The translations under genes were made by a program, and so were the position numbers. Positions 3,057 to 11,451 of a stretch of 32,000 nt of DNA are shown here, piece after piece. The notes under the pieces were generated by a model that saw nothing but the letters and a program-made list of their open reading frames with translations, was not told the DNA's origin and made no database searches. Position 1 is the first letter of the stretch; each line of letters begins with the position of its first letter. The DNA is from Aciduliprofundum boonei T469 (GTDB taxonomy: Archaea > Thermoplasmatota > Thermoplasmata > Thermoplasmatales > Aciduliprofundaceae): the NCBI RefSeq assembly GCF_000025665.1, contig NC_013926.1:180001-212000 (forward strand), in the 5' to 3' direction.

Positions 3057-4082
3057 TTACGCCGAGCTCCAATCTTTCAATACTTTTTTCAAAATATCGT
3101 ACGCTTTATTCACATCTTTTATATTCACATGCTCGTCCTTCGTGTGCGCATATCTCAATTCCCCAGGTCCAAATACCACGGTAGGAGTACCCTTATCCAC
3201 CAAACTTTGAGCATCACTCCAGCTGCGGAATCCTCCGAGTTCGGCATACTTCAAAAATTCTTTAACCCTTCGTTTCCGAGAGGATATTTCAAAGGGAGGT
3301 GATAAATCGTAAATCATATGATTCACATTGTACTTTCTTCCAATTCTATTCACCTCGTCAATTATCTCAACAGCAGTTTGACCAGGCAGATAAACAAAAT
3401 CAACCAACGCTTTGGCACTCTCTGGGACCGCAAGAATATAATCCCCTCCATCAAACATTTCGACATTTATCGCTGGCTTCCCAAGCAATTTATGCTCCGC
3501 CTTCAGAAACTTTAATTTTTTCATCTCACTTATAAACTTTATACCTTGCCATATCGCATTTTCCTTCTCTTCTGCACAGGAGCCATGCATGGCCTTTCCC
3601 CAAAACTCAAATTCCAGCTCTAGACTTCCCGCCTCGGCCGTGCATACTCTTAGAGATGTGGGCTCCATGGTTATCGCAAAATCGTGCGCATACTTCTCAG
3701 CGTACTTCTTAGAGCCCTTTCCTTCCTCTTCCTCATCAACGAAGAAAACATAGCTAACGGGGAGAGAATCTTTAAATTCTTCTATGAGCTTGAGCATTAT
3801 AAGCACACCCGCCTTATCATCCATCACTCCTCTACCCCAGAGAATATCGCCCTCAATCTCTGGGGGGAAGTAATCACCAACGGTATCCACATGGGCGTTA
3901 ATCATAAATTTTTCCTCTGGATTGACAATTATATTGTACCTCTCTTCATCCACGGGCATACGCTCGTAATTCACACCCAGAGCTTCCAATTTCTCCTCTA
4001 TGTATCCAAGAATTTTCGCCTCGTATCCTGTCTCGCTCCTTATTTTTGAAAGCTCAACAAGCTCTTCAATCTTGATGTCCAT
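3057..4082 (-). CDS. M20 family metallohydrolase (ArgE/DapE/LysK-like deacylase or peptidase)
   Basis: Metal-ligand motifs in family order: HVDTV, GRGVMDDKAG, VDEEEEG, and C-terminal YAHTKDEHV. The 341-aa length is typical of short M20 deacylases. Confidence 0.88.
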   Translation of the reverse strand: MDIKIEELVELSKIRSETGYEAKILGYIEEKLEALGVNYERMPVDEERYNIIVNPEEKFMINAHVDTVGDYFPPEIEGDILWGRGVMDDKAGVLIMLKLIEEFKDSLPVSYVFFVDEEEEGKGSKKYAEKYAHDFAITMEPTSLRVCTAEAGSLELEFEFWGKAMHGSCAEEKENAIWQGIKFISEMKKLKFLKAEHKLLGKPAINVEMFDGGDYILAVPESAKALVDFVYLPGQTAVEIIDEVNRIGRKYNVNHMIYDLSPPFEISSRKRRVKEFLKYAELGGFRSWSDAQSLVDKGTPTVVFGPGELRYAHTKDEHVNIKDVNKAYDILKKVLKDWSSA

Positions 4083-4096
4083 AGTAAAGGTATTTC

Positions 4097-5083
4097 TTAA
4101 TCCTCATTAATACTTTGCCCTAAGAACTTGCGAAGCCATGGACCTAGAGCGTAGATAAGGAACATTATGTAGAATACTTGCAATATTGGCTTGAAGGATA
4201 GGGCAAATACAGTTAGAGGAGGAAATACAGTAGCTGCGAGGGAAAGAGATATAGCTTGAGAGCTTGCAGTGGCACCAAGTATCAGAATCATTCCCTGCTC
4301 ATATTTGAATTTTAGAGCTTTAGCTGCCAAAACAGAGAGGGTAGTTTGTATAAAGTAGTATGAGAATAGTGCAGCTAAGACAAGCAGGAAAATTTGCGGC
4401 TCCTCAATTACTTTGCGGGATACTTTTGCCACGGAGAAAAATACAATGAGGAGAATACCCAAGGCAGATATTCCCGGAAGGTACTTCTTTATACCCATAA
4501 AATACTCTCTTCCCTTCATCCTTATTATCTCCCTCCTCGTGAGCATCCCCAAAGCCAAGGGCACTAGGATGTAGAAGAGAAGAATTAACACAAGTTGTAG
4601 AACATTTATTGTGGCGAATATACCTCCGTTGAAGTAAATTAAAATGGGTGAGAGAATTGGAATGAGAAGCAGACCAATAACAGCTATTACCAAAGCATCT
4701 GCCACGCTCGCATCTGCTATCCCGCTCCATCCTATGAGCATGTTAGAGCAGGGAATTGCACCCACTAGAACCAAGGCAAGAGCGAGGTCATCGTAACCAA
4801 TCAAAAGGGTGCGGGTAAGGAAGAAGGCTGTGAGGGAGGCAATGAAGTAAGCAAATATCAGAGTTGATGAGATGAGCTTGTAATTCCTTCCAGCCCTTTT
4901 GACCTTTTCTACCTCCATTCCAGTTAGCATGGGGTAGAGCATGATAAACACGGCGGCAACGCTTACTAGCATTATATTCATCTTTGTGAAATCAATATAA
5001 TAGCCCAAAATTAGAGCAATTATAAACACAAGGGTCACATAGAGATACAGCCTTCGCTTGATATGAATAAGAATTTCAAGCAT
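4097..5083 (-). CDS. BASS/ACR3 superfamily (sodium/bile-acid symporter-like) transporter
   Basis: 328-aa polytopic membrane protein with about 10 hydrophobic segments. The segment GAIPCSNMLIGWSGIADASVADAL resembles the crossover-helix motif of SBF/ACR3 transporters. Substrate unknown. Confidence 0.65.
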   Translation of the reverse strand: MLEILIHIKRRLYLYVTLVFIIALILGYYIDFTKMNIMLVSVAAVFIMLYPMLTGMEVEKVKRAGRNYKLISSTLIFAYFIASLTAFFLTRTLLIGYDDLALALVLVGAIPCSNMLIGWSGIADASVADALVIAVIGLLLIPILSPILIYFNGGIFATINVLQLVLILLFYILVPLALGMLTRREIIRMKGREYFMGIKKYLPGISALGILLIVFFSVAKVSRKVIEEPQIFLLVLAALFSYYFIQTTLSVLAAKALKFKYEQGMILILGATASSQAISLSLAATVFPPLTVFALSFKPILQVFYIMFLIYALGPWLRKFLGQSINED

Positions 5084-5165: not shown

Positions 5166-5879
5166 TTATTCCATTCCCCATCTCACCACACGAGAGGATG
5201 CAAGAATCCCAAGCACTACCCAGATTGTAAGAACTGCCACTGGATACCACAGATTATTCCAAGTACTTAATCCTGAAAGTTGCCTAGCAATCTCTGCCCC
5301 TGCTGCAGTAGGAATGAGCAAAACGATATATCTCAAGGTGCTAGGAAGAACGCTCGCTGGATAAAAAACAGGAGGAAGGATGATAAGCATCATCTGAATC
5401 GGGTTTGTTATCGCAGATATATTTGTAGGCTTTTTGATTCGCATAACTATGCTTAACCCCACGAGATTGCTTATTACCATCAATGGAGCTACAGCCACAA
5501 GGGATGCTAAAACTATAAGCCAAGCGTTTAGAAACATTATGAGAGGAAGCATGTATATAAAATCAGCAAGCATGAATACAAGGCCAGAAATAAAATATCC
5601 AAATATGTAATGAAATGGCTTAACAGGAGATGCAATAAACATATCCATAGTCTTCCCCTGCTTATCCCAGCCTATACTTTGAGCTACTAGGTTCACTCCC
5701 ATACTCCATCCTCCAGAAATGAACCATGCTACCAAAACATTTTTCAAACCAGTAATACCTCCCCAAACAAACATGAGTATTGCAAAACCTATGACAATGA
5801 ATAAATCTTGTACGAGCCATAGAGGTTGGCGCCGGATCCATCTACTTGTTAGATATACAATACCTTTAATTTTCCCCAT
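5166..5879 (-). CDS. ABC-2 type transporter permease
   Basis: Six-TM hydrophobic profile, and translationally coupled to the ATPase gene by a 14-nt overlap. The ORF-track start at 5897 is TTG. ATG at 5879 (MGKIKGIV...) lies 6 nt downstream of GGAGGTG. Confidence 0.85.
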   Translation of the reverse strand: MGKIKGIVYLTSRWIRRQPLWLVQDLFIVIGFAILMFVWGGITGLKNVLVAWFISGGWSMGVNLVAQSIGWDKQGKTMDMFIASPVKPFHYIFGYFISGLVFMLADFIYMLPLIMFLNAWLIVLASLVAVAPLMVISNLVGLSIVMRIKKPTNISAITNPIQMMLIILPPVFYPASVLPSTLRYIVLLIPTAAGAEIARQLSGLSTWNNLWYPVAVLTIWVVLGILASSRVVRWGME

Positions 5880-6756
5880 TTCCCACACCTCCAACAATGT
5901 ACAGATATGAATCCTCCAAACTTATCTCCTCTATCCCTATGCTCTTTGCGTCTATTTTCTCCGCTATTTCCATAGCTTCTCCTCTACTTTTTGCGTATAT
6001 TATCTTCCTGTCACCTAAATCTATATGCTCTTTAAGTGGGAGCTTTGAAGCATTTTTTACCACTATCTTATGCGTGTATGGTATCCTATCCTTCAATTCA
6101 TCCACTGTACCTTTAGCCACGCTTTTTCCCTTGCTTATCATAACTACATAATCCCCTAGGATTTCAGCTTCTTTCATATCATGGGTGGTTAGAACTATCG
6201 TCTTACCTCTGTTTGCCTCCTCTCGTAATGATTTCCATACAACATACCTGGCCTCTACATCAAGACCGCTTGACGGTTCATCCAAAAAAACTACAGGAGC
6301 TCCAGAAGCCAGAACCATAGCAACTGCCACTCTTTTTCTCTGCCCTCCACTTAAAGCTATTGCAGGAATATTTCTAACTTCCCACAAGTCAAGGAGCTTT
6401 AAATATTTCTCGCTTCTCTTGACCCCCTCTTCCTTAGAAATACCTCTAATCATAAGATAACCCTTCATAGCATCCAAAGGACTCCAATTATTATCCACAT
6501 GGATATCCTGCGGGCAGAGCGCAATGAGTTTTCTCACTTTCCACACATCTTCTACAGTGGATGAGCCCTCAACTATTGCTTCTCCCCGCGTTGGCTTCAA
6601 AAGTGTGGTGAGCATACCTATAGTTGTGGTCTTTCCTGCCCCGTTTGGTCCAAGAAGCACTGTTATCTTGCCCTGCTCTGCTTTGAAATTCACATCTCTG
6701 GCACCCCACACCCCATTACTGTATCTTTTTCCAAGATGCTTGGCAATGACGCTCAT
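5866..6756 (-). CDS. ABC transporter ATP-binding protein (ABC-2/drug-exporter type)
   Basis: Walker A GPNGAGKTT, signature LSGGQRKR, Walker B VVFLDEPSSGLD, H-loop TTHDM. The ORF-track start at 6762 is GTG. ATG at 6756 is preceded by AAGGTGGTG. Confidence 0.95.
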   Translation of the reverse strand: MSVIAKHLGKRYSNGVWGARDVNFKAEQGKITVLLGPNGAGKTTTIGMLTTLLKPTRGEAIVEGSSTVEDVWKVRKLIALCPQDIHVDNNWSPLDAMKGYLMIRGISKEEGVKRSEKYLKLLDLWEVRNIPAIALSGGQRKRVAVAMVLASGAPVVFLDEPSSGLDVEARYVVWKSLREEANRGKTIVLTTHDMKEAEILGDYVVMISKGKSVAKGTVDELKDRIPYTHKIVVKNASKLPLKEHIDLGDRKIIYAKSRGEAMEIAEKIDAKSIGIEEISLEDSYLYIVGGVGNGEN

Positions 6757-6768
6757 ATTCACACCACC

Positions 6769-6954
6769 TTACCACGAGTGCCATCCATCTTTGAGAATTA
6801 AAGCAATTCCAGCGATTATGAGCAGTATAGGCCCTATTATACATACATTGAATTTTATTATTCCCAGCATCTCTAGGAGCCACAAAACACCTATGATTAT
6901 GAGAAACACGCCACCCAGAACTGCTCCAACGGACATATAACCTTTATATCTCAT
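6769..6954 (-). CDS. 61-aa two-TM miniprotein, LiaI-LiaF-TM (DUF5668)-like
   Basis: Its ATG overlaps the upstream stop (ATGA at 6951..6954). The pattern GGVFLIIIGVLWLLEMLG...IIGPILLIIAGIALIL matches the two-helix LiaF-type TM pattern, judged by eye. Confidence 0.65.
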   Translation of the reverse strand: MRYKGYMSVGAVLGGVFLIIIGVLWLLEMLGIIKFNVCIIGPILLIIAGIALILKDGWHSW

Positions 6955-7910
6955 CTCCTAACCACCTCTTTAATCTTGGATTTCCTGCTTACTTTTAATT
7001 TCTCAGCTTCAATCTTATCTATATAACAATTATCCCCTACTGTCACCTTTTCACCCTTTATGAATTCGGCTCTAACACATTCCACATAAATTTCCTCACC
7101 GAAAATTTTGCTAACTTTCATAGTTCCTGTGAATTTTCTCAGAATTCCCCTCTTACTTCTTATCTCCACTCTTTCTGCCACAATTCTATCCAATGAACTC
7201 TTGCCATCAATTTTCATTTTTAACCCTTCTGCTTTCAAATAAGTTCCCTTTATACTCCCTTCAACGCTAATGCCTTCTCCTATAATCTCGTTGCAAACAA
7301 TAGCTCCACCAAGCCTAATTTTCTCACCTTTAACCCTATTCGCATGTAAAACTCCTCCACAACTTATACTTTCTCCAACCACATCTCCATTAATCTTAGC
7401 ACTACCACCAAAGCTTATGATATTCGCTCTTATAGTCCCTTCAGCATAGAGAGAGCCTGCCACGGATAATTTCTTCGCTCTGATATCCCCCTTTATCTTA
7501 ACACTCCCAGATGCTGATATGTAATTGTATCTCCCAGAAGGAATTGTACAGGCACCCGCGCATTTGTAATCTCTCCCACTCATATTCTCGGCTTTATTTT
7601 CAATTTCCTTGCTCTCTACCTTCTTAAACACTTTCTCTTCTACTTCCTCGGCAGTTGTTTTACTATCCTCTGGAAAAAATTTTTTTAATTCTTCATCCAT
7701 TTTTTTCATGGAGCGAGATAAGATATCATCTATTCCTCCCATAGTGGAATTTTCATATTCTCCCTCTTCTCTAATTTTCTCTGGCTCTTCTTCAATTCTT
7801 TCTTCTTCAACCTCATCCAAATATCTTCTCAAAATGTCCTCGTAAGTTTCCTTGCTTATCTCACCTTTCTCATACCTTTCCCTCAATTTTTTAATGAAAT
7901 CATCTTCCAT
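6951..7910 (-). CDS. SHOCT-like N-terminus + acidic linker + beta-helix repeat domain (Toastrack/DUF4097/bactofilin-like)
   Basis: The N-terminus KKLRERYEKGEISKETYEDILRRYL is SHOCT-like. The C-terminal ~200 aa show a short-period repeat of G/hydrophobic rungs (KIKGDIRAKKLSVAGSLYAEGTIRANIISFGGSAKINGDVVGESISCGGVLHANRVKGEKIRLGGAIV...), typical of single-stranded right-handed beta-helices. Confidence 0.7.
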   Translation of the reverse strand: MEDDFIKKLRERYEKGEISKETYEDILRRYLDEVEEERIEEEPEKIREEGEYENSTMGGIDDILSRSMKKMDEELKKFFPEDSKTTAEEVEEKVFKKVESKEIENKAENMSGRDYKCAGACTIPSGRYNYISASGSVKIKGDIRAKKLSVAGSLYAEGTIRANIISFGGSAKINGDVVGESISCGGVLHANRVKGEKIRLGGAIVCNEIIGEGISVEGSIKGTYLKAEGLKMKIDGKSSLDRIVAERVEIRSKRGILRKFTGTMKVSKIFGEEIYVECVRAEFIKGEKVTVGDNCYIDKIEAEKLKVSRKSKIKEVVRR

Positions 7911-7932
7911 AATTGGGCTATGGAGTGATGGA

Positions 7933-7940
7933 ATATAAAA
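7933..7940 (-). promoter_or_regulatory. TATA box (TTTTATAT on the minus strand) for the Toastrack-ABC operon; leaderless spacing
   Basis: Its centre lies 26.5 nt upstream of the ATG at 7910. Confidence 0.45.
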
Positions 7941-7970
7941 TTTTTTATAAAAATTTTAATTTAAAAATTC

Positions 7971-8006
7971 AACTTCTACTTTGAAGTTTCAACTTAAAAG
8001 TTGAAA
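7971..8006. promoter_or_regulatory. two adjacent palindromes (candidate operator) in the divergent promoter
   Basis: AACTTC-N6-GAAGTT spans 7971..7988. A perfect 9-bp inverted repeat TTTCAACTT-aa-AAGTTGAAA spans 7987..8006. The half-site TTCAACTT also occurs as a direct repeat at 7968 and 7988. Confidence 0.55.
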
Positions 8007-8029
8007 TAGAATAAGGGCATTATAGAACT

Positions 8030-8443
8030 ATGAATCCCAGTGAAAAAATATCCCTCATAGTATCACCTCTGCGCATTAAGCTCTTGGAGAGTTTGAGAGA
8101 TGAGAGACATCCGGAGGATTTAGCAAGGGAGTTTAAGATAACAAGACAAGCCGTTGATAAACACCTTTCTATCCTTTACAGATACGGATTAGTTGATAAG
8201 AGAATAAAGGAAGGCATAAGGCCCATGGTGTTTTACAGGATAACATCCGAAGGTGAAGAGTTTCTTCAGAACTTTGAAAATATGGCAGAAGGACATTTTA
8301 TAAGCGTGAGAAAAAGATATAAAGATGAGCTCTTAACCCTAGACAGGATGCTAGTGGATGGAGAGCTCAATGAGGGAGAGTATAAGAGGAGGAGAAATGC
8401 TCTTGATAAAAGGTTCAAATGGGTGATGGAAGGATGGAGATAA
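8030..8443 (+). CDS. ArsR-type winged-helix transcriptional regulator with a C-terminal SHOCT-like helical tail
   Basis: wHTH core RIKLLESL...EDLAREFKITRQAVDKHLSILYRYGLVDKR...FYRITSEG. C-terminal tail LDRMLVDGELNEGEYKRRRNAL. Confidence 0.85.
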   Translation: MNPSEKISLIVSPLRIKLLESLRDERHPEDLAREFKITRQAVDKHLSILYRYGLVDKRIKEGIRPMVFYRITSEGEEFLQNFENMAEGHFISVRKRYKDELLTLDRMLVDGELNEGEYKRRRNALDKRFKWVMEGWR

Positions 8444-8883
8444 GAAAAGGCAAAAGAGAGGATTTGCAGTATCTTCCATCCATACTTATGAAAGCATACA
8501 AGGGATTAGAGGAATATGGCGAGGAGGATATTAACAAGGCCAGAAAGTACATAGAGGACCTCTACGAGGAGGACCCAGAGTGCTTCTTTGTAGCCGAGGA
8601 AAATGGTGAAATAGCGGGATTCATATTCTGCAACCGCTTCTGGTATAGCAAGTTTGAGCATTCCCAAGTAGGTGCTATCCACGAAATCGTTGTATTGCCT
8701 TCTCATAGGCACGAAGGGATTGGAAAAATGTTGATCGAGAAAGCCATGGAAAAACTAAAGCCATCAAAGATTGAATTATGGGTTGGAGAGAAAAATGAAA
8801 ATGCCATAAAGTTCTACGAAAATTTAGGATTCAAAAGAAAAGAAAAAGCTGGAAAATGGGTTAGAATGATCTATATTGCATAG
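8434..8883 (+). CDS. GNAT family N-acetyltransferase (RimI/NAT-like)
   Basis: Acetyl-CoA motif A VLPSHRHEGIGKMLIEKA and the C-terminal block NENAIKFYENLGF. The ORF-track start is 8419. ATG at 8434 (MEIRKGKREDL) has GGTGAT upstream and overlaps the regulator stop. Confidence 0.88.
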   Translation: MEIRKGKREDLQYLPSILMKAYKGLEEYGEEDINKARKYIEDLYEEDPECFFVAEENGEIAGFIFCNRFWYSKFEHSQVGAIHEIVVLPSHRHEGIGKMLIEKAMEKLKPSKIELWVGEKNENAIKFYENLGFKRKEKAGKWVRMIYIA

Positions 8884-9002
8884 ACTATTTTCTTCATATT
8901 TGGGCGCTCTTTGTAAAACATTCTGCTGCCACATTCACATTCTAATTGTTGCACTCCAAGCTCACTAGTTAGTGGCCTCCCACACCTAACGCACCTATAC
9001 AT
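8871..9002 (-). CDS. rpoP: DNA-directed RNA polymerase subunit P (Rpo12/RpoP), 43 aa
   Basis: Hand translation gives MYRCVRCGRPLTSELGVQQLECECGSRMFYKERPNMKKIVYAI. This has the zinc-ribbon YRCxRCG...CxCG...K.RP layout of archaeal RpoP, in the expected position after eL43 in the exosome superoperon. It is below the ORF-track size cutoff. Confidence 0.8.
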   Translation of the reverse strand: MYRCVRCGRPLTSELGVQQLECECGSRMFYKERPNMKKIVYAI

Positions 9003-9249
9003 TTACCCTCACCTTTCTCCACTCTTTATACACATCGGGAGTGTAGGCACCACCTGCAAATTTGAGCCCACAATGGGTGCAAACCCAGATACCTGTAGAT
9101 ACTCTTTTAACAGAATAGTGATGGCATCTTGGGCATAGATGTTTTTTCTCCTTTTCTTTCATAACATCTGCCCAGCGATAGCGAAGTGAGATACCATATC
9201 TTGGGCCGAAGCGCCCTGCAATACCGACCTTTTTAGTCCTCTTTGCCAT
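8995..9249 (-). CDS. rpl37ae: 50S ribosomal protein L37Ae (eL43)
   Basis: [19 protein letters not shown] plus the zinc ribbon CPRC...CTHCG...FAGGAY. The ORF-track start at 9261 is TTG. ATG at 9249 lies 4 nt downstream of GGTGAT. Confidence 0.95.
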   Translation of the reverse strand: MAKRTKKVGIAGRFGPRYGISLRYRWADVMKEKEKKHLCPRCHHYSVKRVSTGIWVCTHCGLKFAGGAYTPDVYKEWRKVRVNV

Positions 9250-10045
9250 TTGAATCACCAAGAATGATCTCCCTGACTTTTCCGCCGATATTCATACTCA
9301 TATTTATAACTTTCTTAACTTCCTCATAGGTAAATGTACCAGAAAGTCCCTTCTGCATAGCGTTTATTTTTCCTTCTTCGTTAGTAGCCACTGTCAATCG
9401 GGCTGAAGCAATGCTCTCCTCATCAAGATTTGGATCTGCCACTATCCAATCTCCAATCTTTGCAAAGGTAACAGGTACTGGATAATGCTGCACAGGTAAC
9501 TTGAAATCCTCACCTAAATCGTACCTTGAGGCAGGAACAGTTGCATTAGTAAGAGCTGCAAGGGCACCATAACCAGCAGCATCAAAGAGATTTCCATCGT
9601 AATCAAGCACATGTATGTCGATGAACACAATCCAAACTTTTTCTCCTTCCTCTATCACCAATTTTTCAAGGTCGATGGCATGGCCCTCTCGTATACCCCT
9701 ATCCACAACACGAGCAAGTTCTATGGCTTCTTCTCCCGGAGGACCAGGTTCAAATGTAGGGGAGGCGAGGGGTGCAAGCTCAGCGTTGGTGGTGAGAATG
9801 CCCATATTAGGTGTATCAGGGAATGGAGTACCCGGCTCAATTTTAACACCCACAAGAACCCTAGTATTGCCTAAATTAACCAGAGCTGAGCCTTCGGCTC
9901 TGGGAATATAGCCCTTAGTAACTGTTAAATTTCTTATCTCATCAAAATGCCTTCCATCTACCCTTGTGCCTTTAGATGCAAGTTTGTGAATGTACTTTCT
10001 TTGCATCTCAGGTACCACACCAGCAGTGAATTTTGAGTTACTCAT
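9233..10045 (-). CDS. rrp42: exosome complex component Rrp42 (RNase PH-like, inactive subunit)
   Basis: RNase PH fold blocks (DGR...R...G.......GSALV..GNT.V) and its position after rrp41. ATG at 10045 (MSNSKF...) is preceded by GGAGGT and overlaps the rrp41 stop by 8 nt. The ORF track extends to 10063. Confidence 0.9.
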
Positions 10046-10775
10046 TCTCATCAACCTCCTCAATATACTTTCTCTTTAGTGCTTCAACCTGCATTTCATG
10101 AATCTTCTCGGCAGCATCCATAGCCATATCCATTGCGGTTGTTAGCTCCTCATAGCTCATATCTCCGTCCATCTGCAATAGGGCAATTTCCTTTGTGCGA
10201 GGCATTATAGCCATAGGAACATCTGCCTGTCCAAAATTGTCCTCTTCCTTGTTCAAATCTAAAACTACAACATCATCTATCTTCCCAGCTGCGCATCCAA
10301 CTATTAAATCCCGCATTGGTATGCCAGCATCTGCAAGCGCTAAAGATGCCACTGTTATACCTGCAACCCTAGTACCAGCATCTGCTTGAAGCACTTCTAT
10401 ATACACATCTATGCTTGTTCTTGGATATTTTTCCACAAATATAACGCTTTCAAGGGCCTCACTTATCACCTTGCTCAACTCAATAGCCCTTCTATCTGGT
10501 CCTGGTCTCTTACGCTCATCAACACTAAATGGAGCCATACTGTAGCGAGCACGTACTATGGCCCTATCAGCCTCCTGAACATGCTTTGGATATGCTTCGT
10601 GGGGCCCATATACAGCCGCTATTATCTTATTTCCACCCCACTCAATAAAAGCAGATCCATCAGCCCTTTTTAGTACTCCGACCTCCATTTTTATGGGCCT
10701 GAGTTGATTAGGTAAGCGTCCATCAATGCGGAGTCCATTATCATCTATGAGTTTGATATCACTCTTCATTCCCAT
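10038..10775 (-). CDS. rrp41: exosome complex exonuclease Rrp41 (RNase PH)
   Basis: LRIDGR...[36 protein letters not shown], with the phosphate-binding region [19 protein letters not shown]. The ORF-track start at 10784 is GTG. ATG at 10775 lies 5 nt downstream of GAGGTGA. Confidence 0.93.
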
Positions 10776-11451
10776 TGTTCTCACCTCTATTCTCTTCTAA
10801 AAATTCTTTAACTCTATCTGTAAGCCCGTAAGTGTGAGCCTCATTCTCAATCATTCTTATTGCCTTTATAACGGTTATTATCCCCTCAGGAGGTCCAGAA
10901 ATCCATATAACACCATTCTGTCCAACATAAATTCTGCACCCTGTGTAATCTTTCAGCATCTGAATCATACTTCCCCCTTTTCCTATAACACGGGGAACTT
11001 TAAACGGAGATATCTTTATTATATGACCTCCCTCCAGCTTGCGAAGTCCCTGCTCTTTCATAGTGATCCAGACCTGGCCTAACTCATTCACATTGCTTAC
11101 CTTGGCAAGTATAACATCACCTATGCTAAGATATCTCCCTGTATCTCCAAAGTCCACACGCCAAGGCACATCATTCACATGCAGAGGCGCATAATAGGGT
11201 GCGTTTATATCTACCACCCAGTTCATAGGTGCCAGGTCTATTATCTTTCCTATCACTTTGTCTCCCTTTTTCGGTACATAGCATCCTGAGAGAGGAATAA
11301 CATTCACATACCCGGCACGGATATCAACTATTCCAAGATAGGCAGAATAAAGCTTGCCATTCTCAACAAAAACTCCGTTACCGGGCTTACCCTTCTCATC
11401 AATTTCCTCTCCCGGAACAACAATTTTTCGTATAGCTATTTTTCCTTCCAT
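10759..11451 (-). CDS. rrp4: exosome RNA-binding subunit Rrp4 (S1 + KH domains)
   Basis: N-terminal domain VVPGEEI, an S1 segment ([11 protein letters not shown]...W.VDI) and the KH motif [13 protein letters not shown]. Operon position fits. Confidence 0.93.

Follow-up and report, generated by a model that had tools for sequence, protein, structure and literature searches.

We analyzed a window of 32,000 nucleotides (nt) from the archaeon Aciduliprofundum boonei T469 (NC_013926.1, positions 180,001 to 212,000; coordinates below are relative to the window unless another locus is named) and found a pair of divergent genes whose products, a winged-helix regulator and a bactofilin-like protein, both carry a helical hairpin of the SHOCT type. 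The gene for the 319-amino-acid (aa) effector protein, here called EFF, lies on the minus strand (6951..7910) and heads an operon. The gene for the 137-aa regulator, REG, an ArsR-type winged helix-turn-helix (wHTH) protein, lies on the plus strand (8030..8443), with a spacer of 119 base pairs (bp) between the two.

SHOCT hairpins on the regulator and the effector

In EFF, an N-terminal SHOCT hairpin and an acidic linker precede a bactofilin-like beta-helix. The AlphaFold2 model places the beta-helix at residues 113-318, built of 17-residue repeats with a predicted local distance difference test score (pLDDT) of 94-98, and folds the N-terminus into a helix-turn-helix (helices at residues 4-14 and 20-41; pLDDT 81-92 over residues 1-30); the acidic linker, at approximately residues 32-110, is disordered and of low confidence, and the whole-model mean pLDDT is 82.5. 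In each of the 45 homologues measured the net charge of the linker was negative, from -1 to -17, and its length varied among homologues from 23 to 119 residues. The model of REG (mean pLDDT 94.3) has the wHTH at residues 1-71 and, past the wing, a long helix (residues 73-109) that runs into the hairpin, with a turn at residues 110-114 and a second helix at 115-133.

The EFF sequence includes KKLRERYEKGEISKETYEDILRRYL, in which L9-L31 corresponds to nt 7818..7886, and the REG sequence includes LDRMLVDGELNEGEYKRRRNAL, with L104-L125 at nt 8339..8404. Against the Pfam SHOCT profile (PF09851; gathering score 27 bits), residues 6-29 of EFF (7824..7895, minus strand) matched with an E value of 2.6e-5 and 24.2 bits, and residues 99-125 of REG (8324..8404, plus strand) with an E value of 0.043 and 14 bits; the structural hairpin of REG reaches approximately residue 133 (nt 8428). 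By itself the REG match is unconvincing, and it is offset by matches at the family level: at E <= 0.1 the profile was found in all 21 effector orthologues (best 4e-6) and in 21 of 26 regulator orthologues (best 4.3e-5), and the homologue P0028 has a precomputed PF09851 match.

Read directly from the sequences, the G-x-I/L-[ST]-x-x-E-[FY]-type turn motif of SHOCT appears as GEISKETY in EFF and GELNEGEY in REG. The hairpin is the best-conserved part of EFF, with L9, G16, I18, S19, T22, Y23, I26, R29 and Y30 invariant among 21 sequences, and it is kept in the distant homologues P0045-P0063. In REG it is among the best-conserved residues (L104, D105, L108, V109, E115, Y118, R128 and W131 are invariant in the orthologue alignment), and the motif L-D/E-x2-L-x2-G-x-I/L-x-E-x2-Y is held in 34 diverse members of the regulator family, down to 24% identity. 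When the two hairpins were compared by hhalign using the deeper alignments, the local P value was 1e-4 over 20 columns with 20% identity, replacing the P value of 0.01 from a run with shallow alignments. The similarity between the profiles is only moderate, and the two segments share the same type of motif and are not near-copies.

The EFF and REG segments are genuine SHOCT-type hairpins. An earlier note on this DNA had claimed the same hairpin type for the C-terminus of the regulator and the N-terminus of the effector, and the SHOCT matches, the AlphaFold2 hairpins and the conservation within both families bear it out. The pattern quoted there, L-x(4,5)-G, needs correction: as written it matches neither protein, and the true spacing is L-x(6)-G. 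With this spacing the pattern matches exactly EFF and REG among the open reading frames (ORFs) of the window, compared with a mean of 0.013 matches in shuffled sequences, and none of 300 shuffles reached two.

A second Pfam profile, GvpG (gas vesicle protein G), matched the REG hairpin (residues 98-128) with its positions 33-65 of 67 in 25 of the 26 orthologues (best E 7.6e-4), and its C-terminal half matched the EFF hairpin (residues 7-34) weakly. These matches suggest that the C-terminus of GvpG is itself a SHOCT-like hairpin.

Conservation of the pair and its operator

Two palindromes lie in the spacer between the genes. Operator site 1 is a perfect palindrome, TTTCAAC-N6-GTTGAAA (7987..8006), ending 24 bp upstream of the REG start codon. 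Operator site 2, TTCAAC-N6-TTTGAA (7968..7985), has one mismatch and is located 20 bp from site 1, centre to centre. Between site 2 and the EFF start is a palindromic TATA-like element, TTTTTATAAAAA (7942..7953). In the window, TTCAAC-N6-GTTGAA was found perfectly at 7988-8005, with one mismatch at 7968-7985 and nowhere else, against 0.13 matches expected by chance. In 10 aligned intergenic regions of the DHVE2 type, TATTTCAAC-N6-GTTGA is invariant at approximately 22 bp from the REG start, and a weaker second copy 20 bp away is partly conserved in orthologous loci. Across the same 10 regions TTTTTATAAAAA is nearly invariant and, judged from archaeal promoter geometry, it is likely the core promoter of the EFF operon.

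The operator follows the EFF and REG promoters where the genes have moved apart. In locus L009, REG is not next to EFF and both operator sites are kept at the EFF promoter, and in L004, where the pair is split by an insertion, a copy of the operator is found beside each of the two separated promoters. A GC-rich clade of Thermoplasmata has a related palindrome, TTAACCTTAAGGTTGAA. The gene inserted in L004 (4728-7000 of that locus) encodes a 653-aa, repeat-rich surface protein with NNT/SNN-type repeats and hydrophobic segments at both ends.

We examined the pairing in approximately 91 loci, comprising the window and 11 genome loci, 6 distant Thermoplasmata loci and 73 metagenome loci; the genome loci recovered are all from DHVE2 or from Thermoplasmata metagenome-assembled genomes. 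In the window and the 11 genome loci, REG is divergent from EFF and the hairpin is present on both. In the GC-rich clade, in which EFF is 22-26% identical, a divergent wHTH gene was found in all six loci examined (L015, L018, L019, L020, L026 and L027), its product ending in C-terminal sequences such as LLVLDDDLSAGRLDEQVYEQRRESLEKQY. A metagenome scan started from the regulator recovered 80 loci, and each of the 73 with enough upstream sequence has, in divergent orientation, an EFF homologue that bears the N-terminal hairpin; these 73 loci represent 46 distinct motif combinations. Both hairpins were thus present in every informative orthologous pair, across several sublineages and down to an effector identity of about 23-25%. 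The distant regulators P0069, P0080 and P0067 are on contigs of <700 bp and were left out of the gene-context comparison. Neither of the bactofilin homologues lacking SHOCT, P0064 and P0065, has such a regulator adjoining it.

Within Thermoplasmatota the module is widespread, and its conservation is tight. Its divergent orientation and conserved palindromic operator make REG and the beta-helix operon one regulatory unit, and we consider the regulatory coupling of the pair highly probable. We infer that REG dimers bind the palindromes and control both transcription units, and the promoter geometry and the sign of regulation are read in the same way. The earlier note had taken the operon of the beta-helix protein for the target of the regulator, which agrees with the gene order and the operator, and its suggestion to look for the motif on both partners in orthologous pairs gave a positive answer in the informative loci.

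In the GC-rich clade, a small basic ORF of 38-61 aa lies directly upstream of EFF and overlaps its start or stops 4-5 nt short of it (L015 2424-2555; L018 3847-3996; L019 3880-3996; L026 2873-2995; L020 1414-1596; L027 679-864, in coordinates of each locus). It has a Trp within the last few residues (...EVHWV*, ...AQNWK*, ...PRWNQ*) and is shared by the members of a subclade, with no Pfam match recorded; in these lineages the ORF may provide the module with a third component.

Protein families, gene neighbours and bacterial parallels

By Pfam profiles, the beta-helix of EFF is nearest to Bactofilin, more so than to Toastrack. EFF of the window scored 19.5 bits against Bactofilin (PF04519; E 1.2e-3), below the gathering score of 27.9, and matches at E <= 0.1 were found in 13 of the 21 orthologues. 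Homologues linked to EFF through profiles exceed the gathering score (P0058, 36.0 bits; P0064, 37.2; P0065, 50.3; the effector of L032, 49.5), and several EFF homologues carry the JGI name 'cytoskeletal protein CcmA (bactofilin family)'. DUF2807, a Toastrack model, matched three of the 21 orthologues at E <= 0.1 and reached 27.6 bits in the truncated relative P0062 (gathering score 24.2), while the Pfam search of the EFF family gave no matches to DUF4097 or DUF2154. A Foldseek search with the EFF model returned generic beta-helices only, none with an E value below 0.1, and a sequence-profile search of the PDB returned nothing useful; neither search separated bactofilin from Toastrack.

The beta-helix of EFF starts with a DYKCAGxC motif, and the protein has conserved cysteines at C117, C121 and C295. 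Near the C-terminus, a G-x-x-C-x-I/V motif persists even in homologues that are distant or have no SHOCT (GPRCRI, GPHCKI, MQGCRV, ESGCQV). The cysteines may form a redox or metal site.

REG scored 30.1 bits against HTH_5 (gathering score 22) and 29.8 bits against HTH_20 (27), placing it among the ArsR/SmtB winged-helix proteins. With the REG model, Foldseek found SmtB, CadC, HlyU and NolR at E values of ~1e-4 as well as PadR, HxlR and Phr-type regulators, and the closest named homologue is in Aciduliprofundum sp. MAR08-339. The 137-aa sequence, read directly, contains no Cys, and REG thus has neither a classic ArsR thiolate metal site nor a zinc ribbon. Classic ArsR metal sensing is unlikely on the same ground, and the NCBIfam metalloregulator model gave 33.8 bits against a cut-off of 55; a role as a Phr-type heat-shock regulator is unsupported (17.6 bits with the NCBIfam model, whose cut-off is 320). 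DUF4004 (PF13171) was not among the Pfam matches of REG up to E = 1, and Pfam gave no match to DUF2089. Around one relative of REG, P0075 in locus L028, the gene that follows encodes a 238-aa protein with no Pfam match (3564-4280 of that locus) and an HsdM-type methyltransferase gene is nearby, which suggests that some members of the wHTH-SHOCT family serve other, possibly defence-related, loci.

Downstream of EFF on the minus strand, the operon encodes a 61-aa LiaI/LiaF-like membrane protein with two transmembrane (TM) segments (6769..6954), whose start codon overlaps the EFF stop codon and which exceeds the gathering score of 27 bits for both PF18917 (LiaI-LiaF-like_TM1; 31.9 bits) and PF22570 (28.1 bits). 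Together, EFF and the 61-aa protein resemble a split LiaF, with the TM part and the cytoplasmic beta-helix on separate polypeptides. Next on the minus strand are a DrrA-like ABC transporter ATPase (5866..6762; Pfam ABC_tran E 8e-27; NCBIfam drrA E 9e-65, under the cut-off) and an ABC-2 type permease (5166..5897; Pfam ABC2_membrane, 32.8 bits, over the gathering score of 26.9). On the plus strand, a GNAT acetyltransferase gene (8419..8883; Pfam Acetyltransf_1 E 5e-23) overlaps the 3' end of REG by 25 nt; its best NCBIfam similarities are to RimI and spermidine acetyltransferase, all under the cut-off. Across 5166..8883 these two ABC genes, EFF, the LiaI-like gene, REG and GNAT are all that is encoded, and neither a two-component pair nor a PspA-like LiaH is among them. 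Directly downstream on the minus strand (8871-11451) is what we take to be a housekeeping cluster, its translations resembling RNA polymerase subunit P, ribosomal protein L37Ae and the exosome subunits Rrp42, Rrp41 and Rrp4.

These neighbours vary among the loci. The LiaI-like gene follows EFF in 11 and the GNAT gene follows REG in 10 of the 14 genome loci, the ABC ATPase is syntenic in L002, L006, L007, L008, L009 and L012, and the ABC-2 permease in several genome loci; in L032, of a distant lineage, the effector is likewise followed by a DrrA-like ATPase and an ABC-2 permease. No homologue of the LiaI-like, ABC ATPase, ABC-2 permease or GNAT genes was detected downstream in the metagenome loci other than L032, and no GNAT homologue was detected in any of the 73 metagenome loci with a REG-EFF pair. 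In the distant loci L015, L018, L019 and L026, the genes called 3' of the regulator are of kinds other than GNAT. The LiaI-like gene, the ABC-2 transporter and GNAT are found in DHVE2 loci and are not part of the core, and GNAT is a lineage-specific accessory outside it. The acetyltransferase could be either a modifier or an output that is co-regulated.

The pairing has bacterial parallels. In Ravi et al. 2024 (PMC11237479), SHOCT-like and SHOCT-bihelical hairpins are found N-terminal to Toastrack domains, and DUF2089 regulators, consisting of a zinc ribbon (ZnR), a helix-turn-helix (HTH) and a C-terminal SHOCT-like domain, are found beside 'SHOCT-like+X' proteins. The same paper describes operons in which Toastrack genes accompany ABC transporters and HTH regulators, as well as the occasional transfer of such domains to Euryarchaeota, and predicts the SHOCT-like domain to be an anchor at the inner leaflet and Toastrack a sub-membrane signalling platform. 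Velten et al. 2026 (PMC13649987) demonstrated in Bacillus that BacE and BacF, which are bactofilins, bind the adjacent BacR, lower its DNA binding and bring it to the membrane, and that vancomycin reverses the capture, for which the term 'partner switch' is used. The earlier note had called the arrangement undescribed, which does not hold given the bacterial HTH regulators with SHOCT-like domains listed beside SHOCT-like proteins in the former source and the membrane sequestration by bactofilins shown in the latter. The pairing is not unprecedented and is an archaeal version of a known bacterial arrangement.

Like REG, BacR of B. subtilis (YhbD, DUF4004; a dimer) is a small HTH regulator adjoining bactofilin genes and affecting their expression, and the capture of BacR by the bactofilins at the membrane, with its release by cell-wall stress (PMC13649987), is the mechanism proposed below for the archaeal module. 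The systems differ in the fold of the regulator (DUF4004 versus ArsR-type wHTH), in gene order (one operon in Bacillus, divergent here) and in domain of life (a bacterium and an archaeon). SHOCT hairpins are not mentioned in the abstract, section 2.1 or discussion of that paper (PMC13649987), and the same parts report no specific BacR operator, in contrast to the conserved palindrome here.

The DUF2089-type regulators (PMC11237479, Table S4 and Text S2.4) share with REG the HTH with a C-terminal SHOCT-like hairpin and the neighbouring protein with an N-terminal one. Their loci also contain beta-helical Toastrack, LiaI-LiaF-TM and ABC transporter genes, and Lia-like signalling from membrane to transcription is proposed for them. 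They are bacterial, have a GerE/DUF2089 HTH and an N-terminal zinc ribbon, neither of which is present in REG, and have Toastrack in place of the bactofilin-scoring helix; in those parts of the source, SHOCT-like is read as a membrane anchor and no SHOCT-SHOCT docking is proposed.

In proteins combining SHOCT-bihelical or SHOCT-like with Toastrack (for example B. subtilis YvlB; the Streptomyces operon 'TM-TM-ABC-ATPase-SHOCT-bihelical+Toastrack'), an N-terminal hairpin likewise replaces the TM anchor before a cytoplasmic beta-helix, and the operon contains membrane proteins and an ABC transporter, but no cognate SHOCT-tagged regulator has been described and the helix is a DUF4097/DUF2154 Toastrack in place of the bactofilin-like one. 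The envelope stress system LiaIH-LiaGFSR resembles the module in its LiaI/LiaF-type TM protein, its cytoplasmic beta-helical protein and the proposed logic of a scaffold restraining a regulator; its histidine kinase, response regulator and PspA/LiaH are absent from the archaeal operon, which has a one-component wHTH instead. The archaeal module acts, by proposal, like the BacR and DUF2089/Toastrack systems and is a member of neither.

A proposed feedback circuit and its alternatives

We propose that the module could be a conserved one-component feedback circuit of Thermoplasmatota, an archaeal analogue of the bacterial Lia/Psp-type and BacR-bactofilin envelope circuits. REG, probably as a dimer, would bind the two neighbouring TTCAAC-N6-GTTGAA palindromes, which lie between the divergent promoters; the apparent overlap of site 1 with the promoter region of REG itself suggests autorepression, and both sites would sit a short way upstream of the EFF operon's TATA-like element. 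The operon would produce a cytoplasmic, SHOCT-tagged, bactofilin-like beta-helix scaffold and, in this lineage, also the LiaI-like two-TM protein and the ABC-2 exporter. The scaffold would capture REG, with the SHOCT hairpins the likely docking elements and the acidic linker possibly helping, and the availability of REG for DNA would be set by the state or the amount of the sub-membrane assembly in the manner of a partner switch. Envelope stress is the presumed signal.

We hold this explanation as a whole, capture of REG included, tentatively and a little short of probable. Direct binding between REG and EFF, suggested by analogy with the bacterial systems, would come close to an even call, slightly on the doubtful side, and binding through the hairpins is possible and more doubtful than that. 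Physical sequestration of REG by the scaffold would be plausible by analogy and context. The broader proposal, that SHOCT is a heterotypic docking tag with which bactofilin-like scaffolds capture and release archaeal one-component regulators by SHOCT-SHOCT contact, and which other SHOCT-tagged subunits, membrane or small and acidic, use to join, we regard as rather unlikely.

The strict co-occurrence of the hairpins, together with the lack of a regulator beside SHOCT-less homologues, would favour docking indirectly, and so would the like gene layout in bacteria. Two proteins of related loci also bear on this question. In L038 (2409-3005, minus strand), a 198-aa protein whose gene overlaps the 3' end of EFF starts with a SHOCT-like segment, after which comes a region that is hydrophobic and apparently multi-TM; the protein matched the hidden Markov model (HMM) of the EFF N-terminus at 1e-5 and Pfam DUF2157, a LiaF-TM model, at an E value of 3.9e-4, under threshold. 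In L109 (3310-3708, minus strand), a 132-aa SHOCT protein (Pfam E 1.1e-4) with an acidic helical region is encoded between REG and EFF. The L038 protein, apparently membrane-embedded, would need no anchor, which favours a role of SHOCT in protein docking over one of mere membrane anchoring. The hairpins also differ in charge, being basic on REG and acidic on EFF in DHVE2 and reversed in the GC-rich clade (r = -0.77, n = 16). We dropped this complementarity as evidence for docking, since it represents a single event between two clades and charge shifts over the whole proteins too.

Besides the loss of that argument, several observations weigh against hairpin docking, and most of them would fit hairpins with independent roles. 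The REG hairpin could be a homodimer or tetramer module and the EFF hairpin could serve its own polymerisation or docking to the LiaI-like protein, with some other signal and no contact between REG and EFF. ArsR, PadR and Phr-type regulators commonly dimerise via C-terminal helices. In the AlphaFold2 model the REG hairpin is continuous with the long helix past the wing, and it is through such helices that Phr, PH1932 and PadR-type proteins dimerise, all of them among the Foldseek matches. The hairpin is found throughout the relatives of REG (approximately 45 representative clusters at 50% identity), including one, P0075, with a canonical SHOCT and, in the 3 kb covered to either side of it, no bactofilin gene. 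The EFF and REG hairpins are only distantly alike (hhalign P 1e-4), the synteny and the operator can be accounted for by regulation alone, and in the only published self-association test that we found, a SHOCT peptide gave a negative result by size-exclusion chromatography (PMC3581485). Independent roles would leave unexplained why the SHOCT-less bactofilin homologues are those without the regulator, why related loci encode extra SHOCT-tagged proteins and why the same pairing of HTH-SHOCT and SHOCT-X is seen in bacteria, and we consider this alternative rather improbable.

If both hairpins were membrane anchors, REG and the scaffold would bind the inner leaflet and co-localise without binding each other, and a perturbation of the membrane would free REG. 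Such a role is predicted for the SHOCT-like domain where it is fused to Toastrack or another cytoplasmic domain (PMC11237479), the operon encodes LiaI-like and ABC-2 membrane proteins, and BacR associates peripherally with the membrane (PMC13649987). The aligned hairpin segment and the linker of EFF are, however, strongly acidic (-5 and -14), which we judge unfavourable for a lipid surface, and the SHOCT-like segment of the L038 protein sits where an anchor would be superfluous; anchoring alone thus seems improbable to us. That the likeness of two short, charged helical segments arose by chance and has no function is hardly credible. An identity of ~20% over ~20 aligned positions and the weak Pfam E value of REG in the window (0.043) would permit it, and the conservation data refute it: in conservation the motifs rank at or near the top of their proteins, both are kept in the ~91 paired loci, and the SHOCT profile is matched across both families, besides the corrected pattern occurring in only these two ORFs of the window and in no shuffle at that count.

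SHOCT is present in thousands of proteins. In the literature that we retrieved it has no demonstrated function, membrane anchoring being a prediction (PMC11237479). The module offers a clean test case of two proteins, with a 137-aa regulator, a defined 39-bp operator and a partner with a 30-residue hairpin, and approximately 90 natural sequence pairs on which covariation analysis or design could draw. Even if the hairpins fail to dock, the locus represents a well-defined archaeal set of regulator, operator and target, tied to an ABC-2 exporter as well as to a LiaI-like protein. If they do dock, SHOCT, a widespread orphan domain, would gain its first defined molecular function, and the partner-switch idea of BacR and bactofilins would extend to archaea with an unrelated regulator fold. 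Bactofilin-like proteins would then have a role in Thermoplasmatota, as the archaeal counterpart of the bactofilin-dependent sequestration of a transcription factor.

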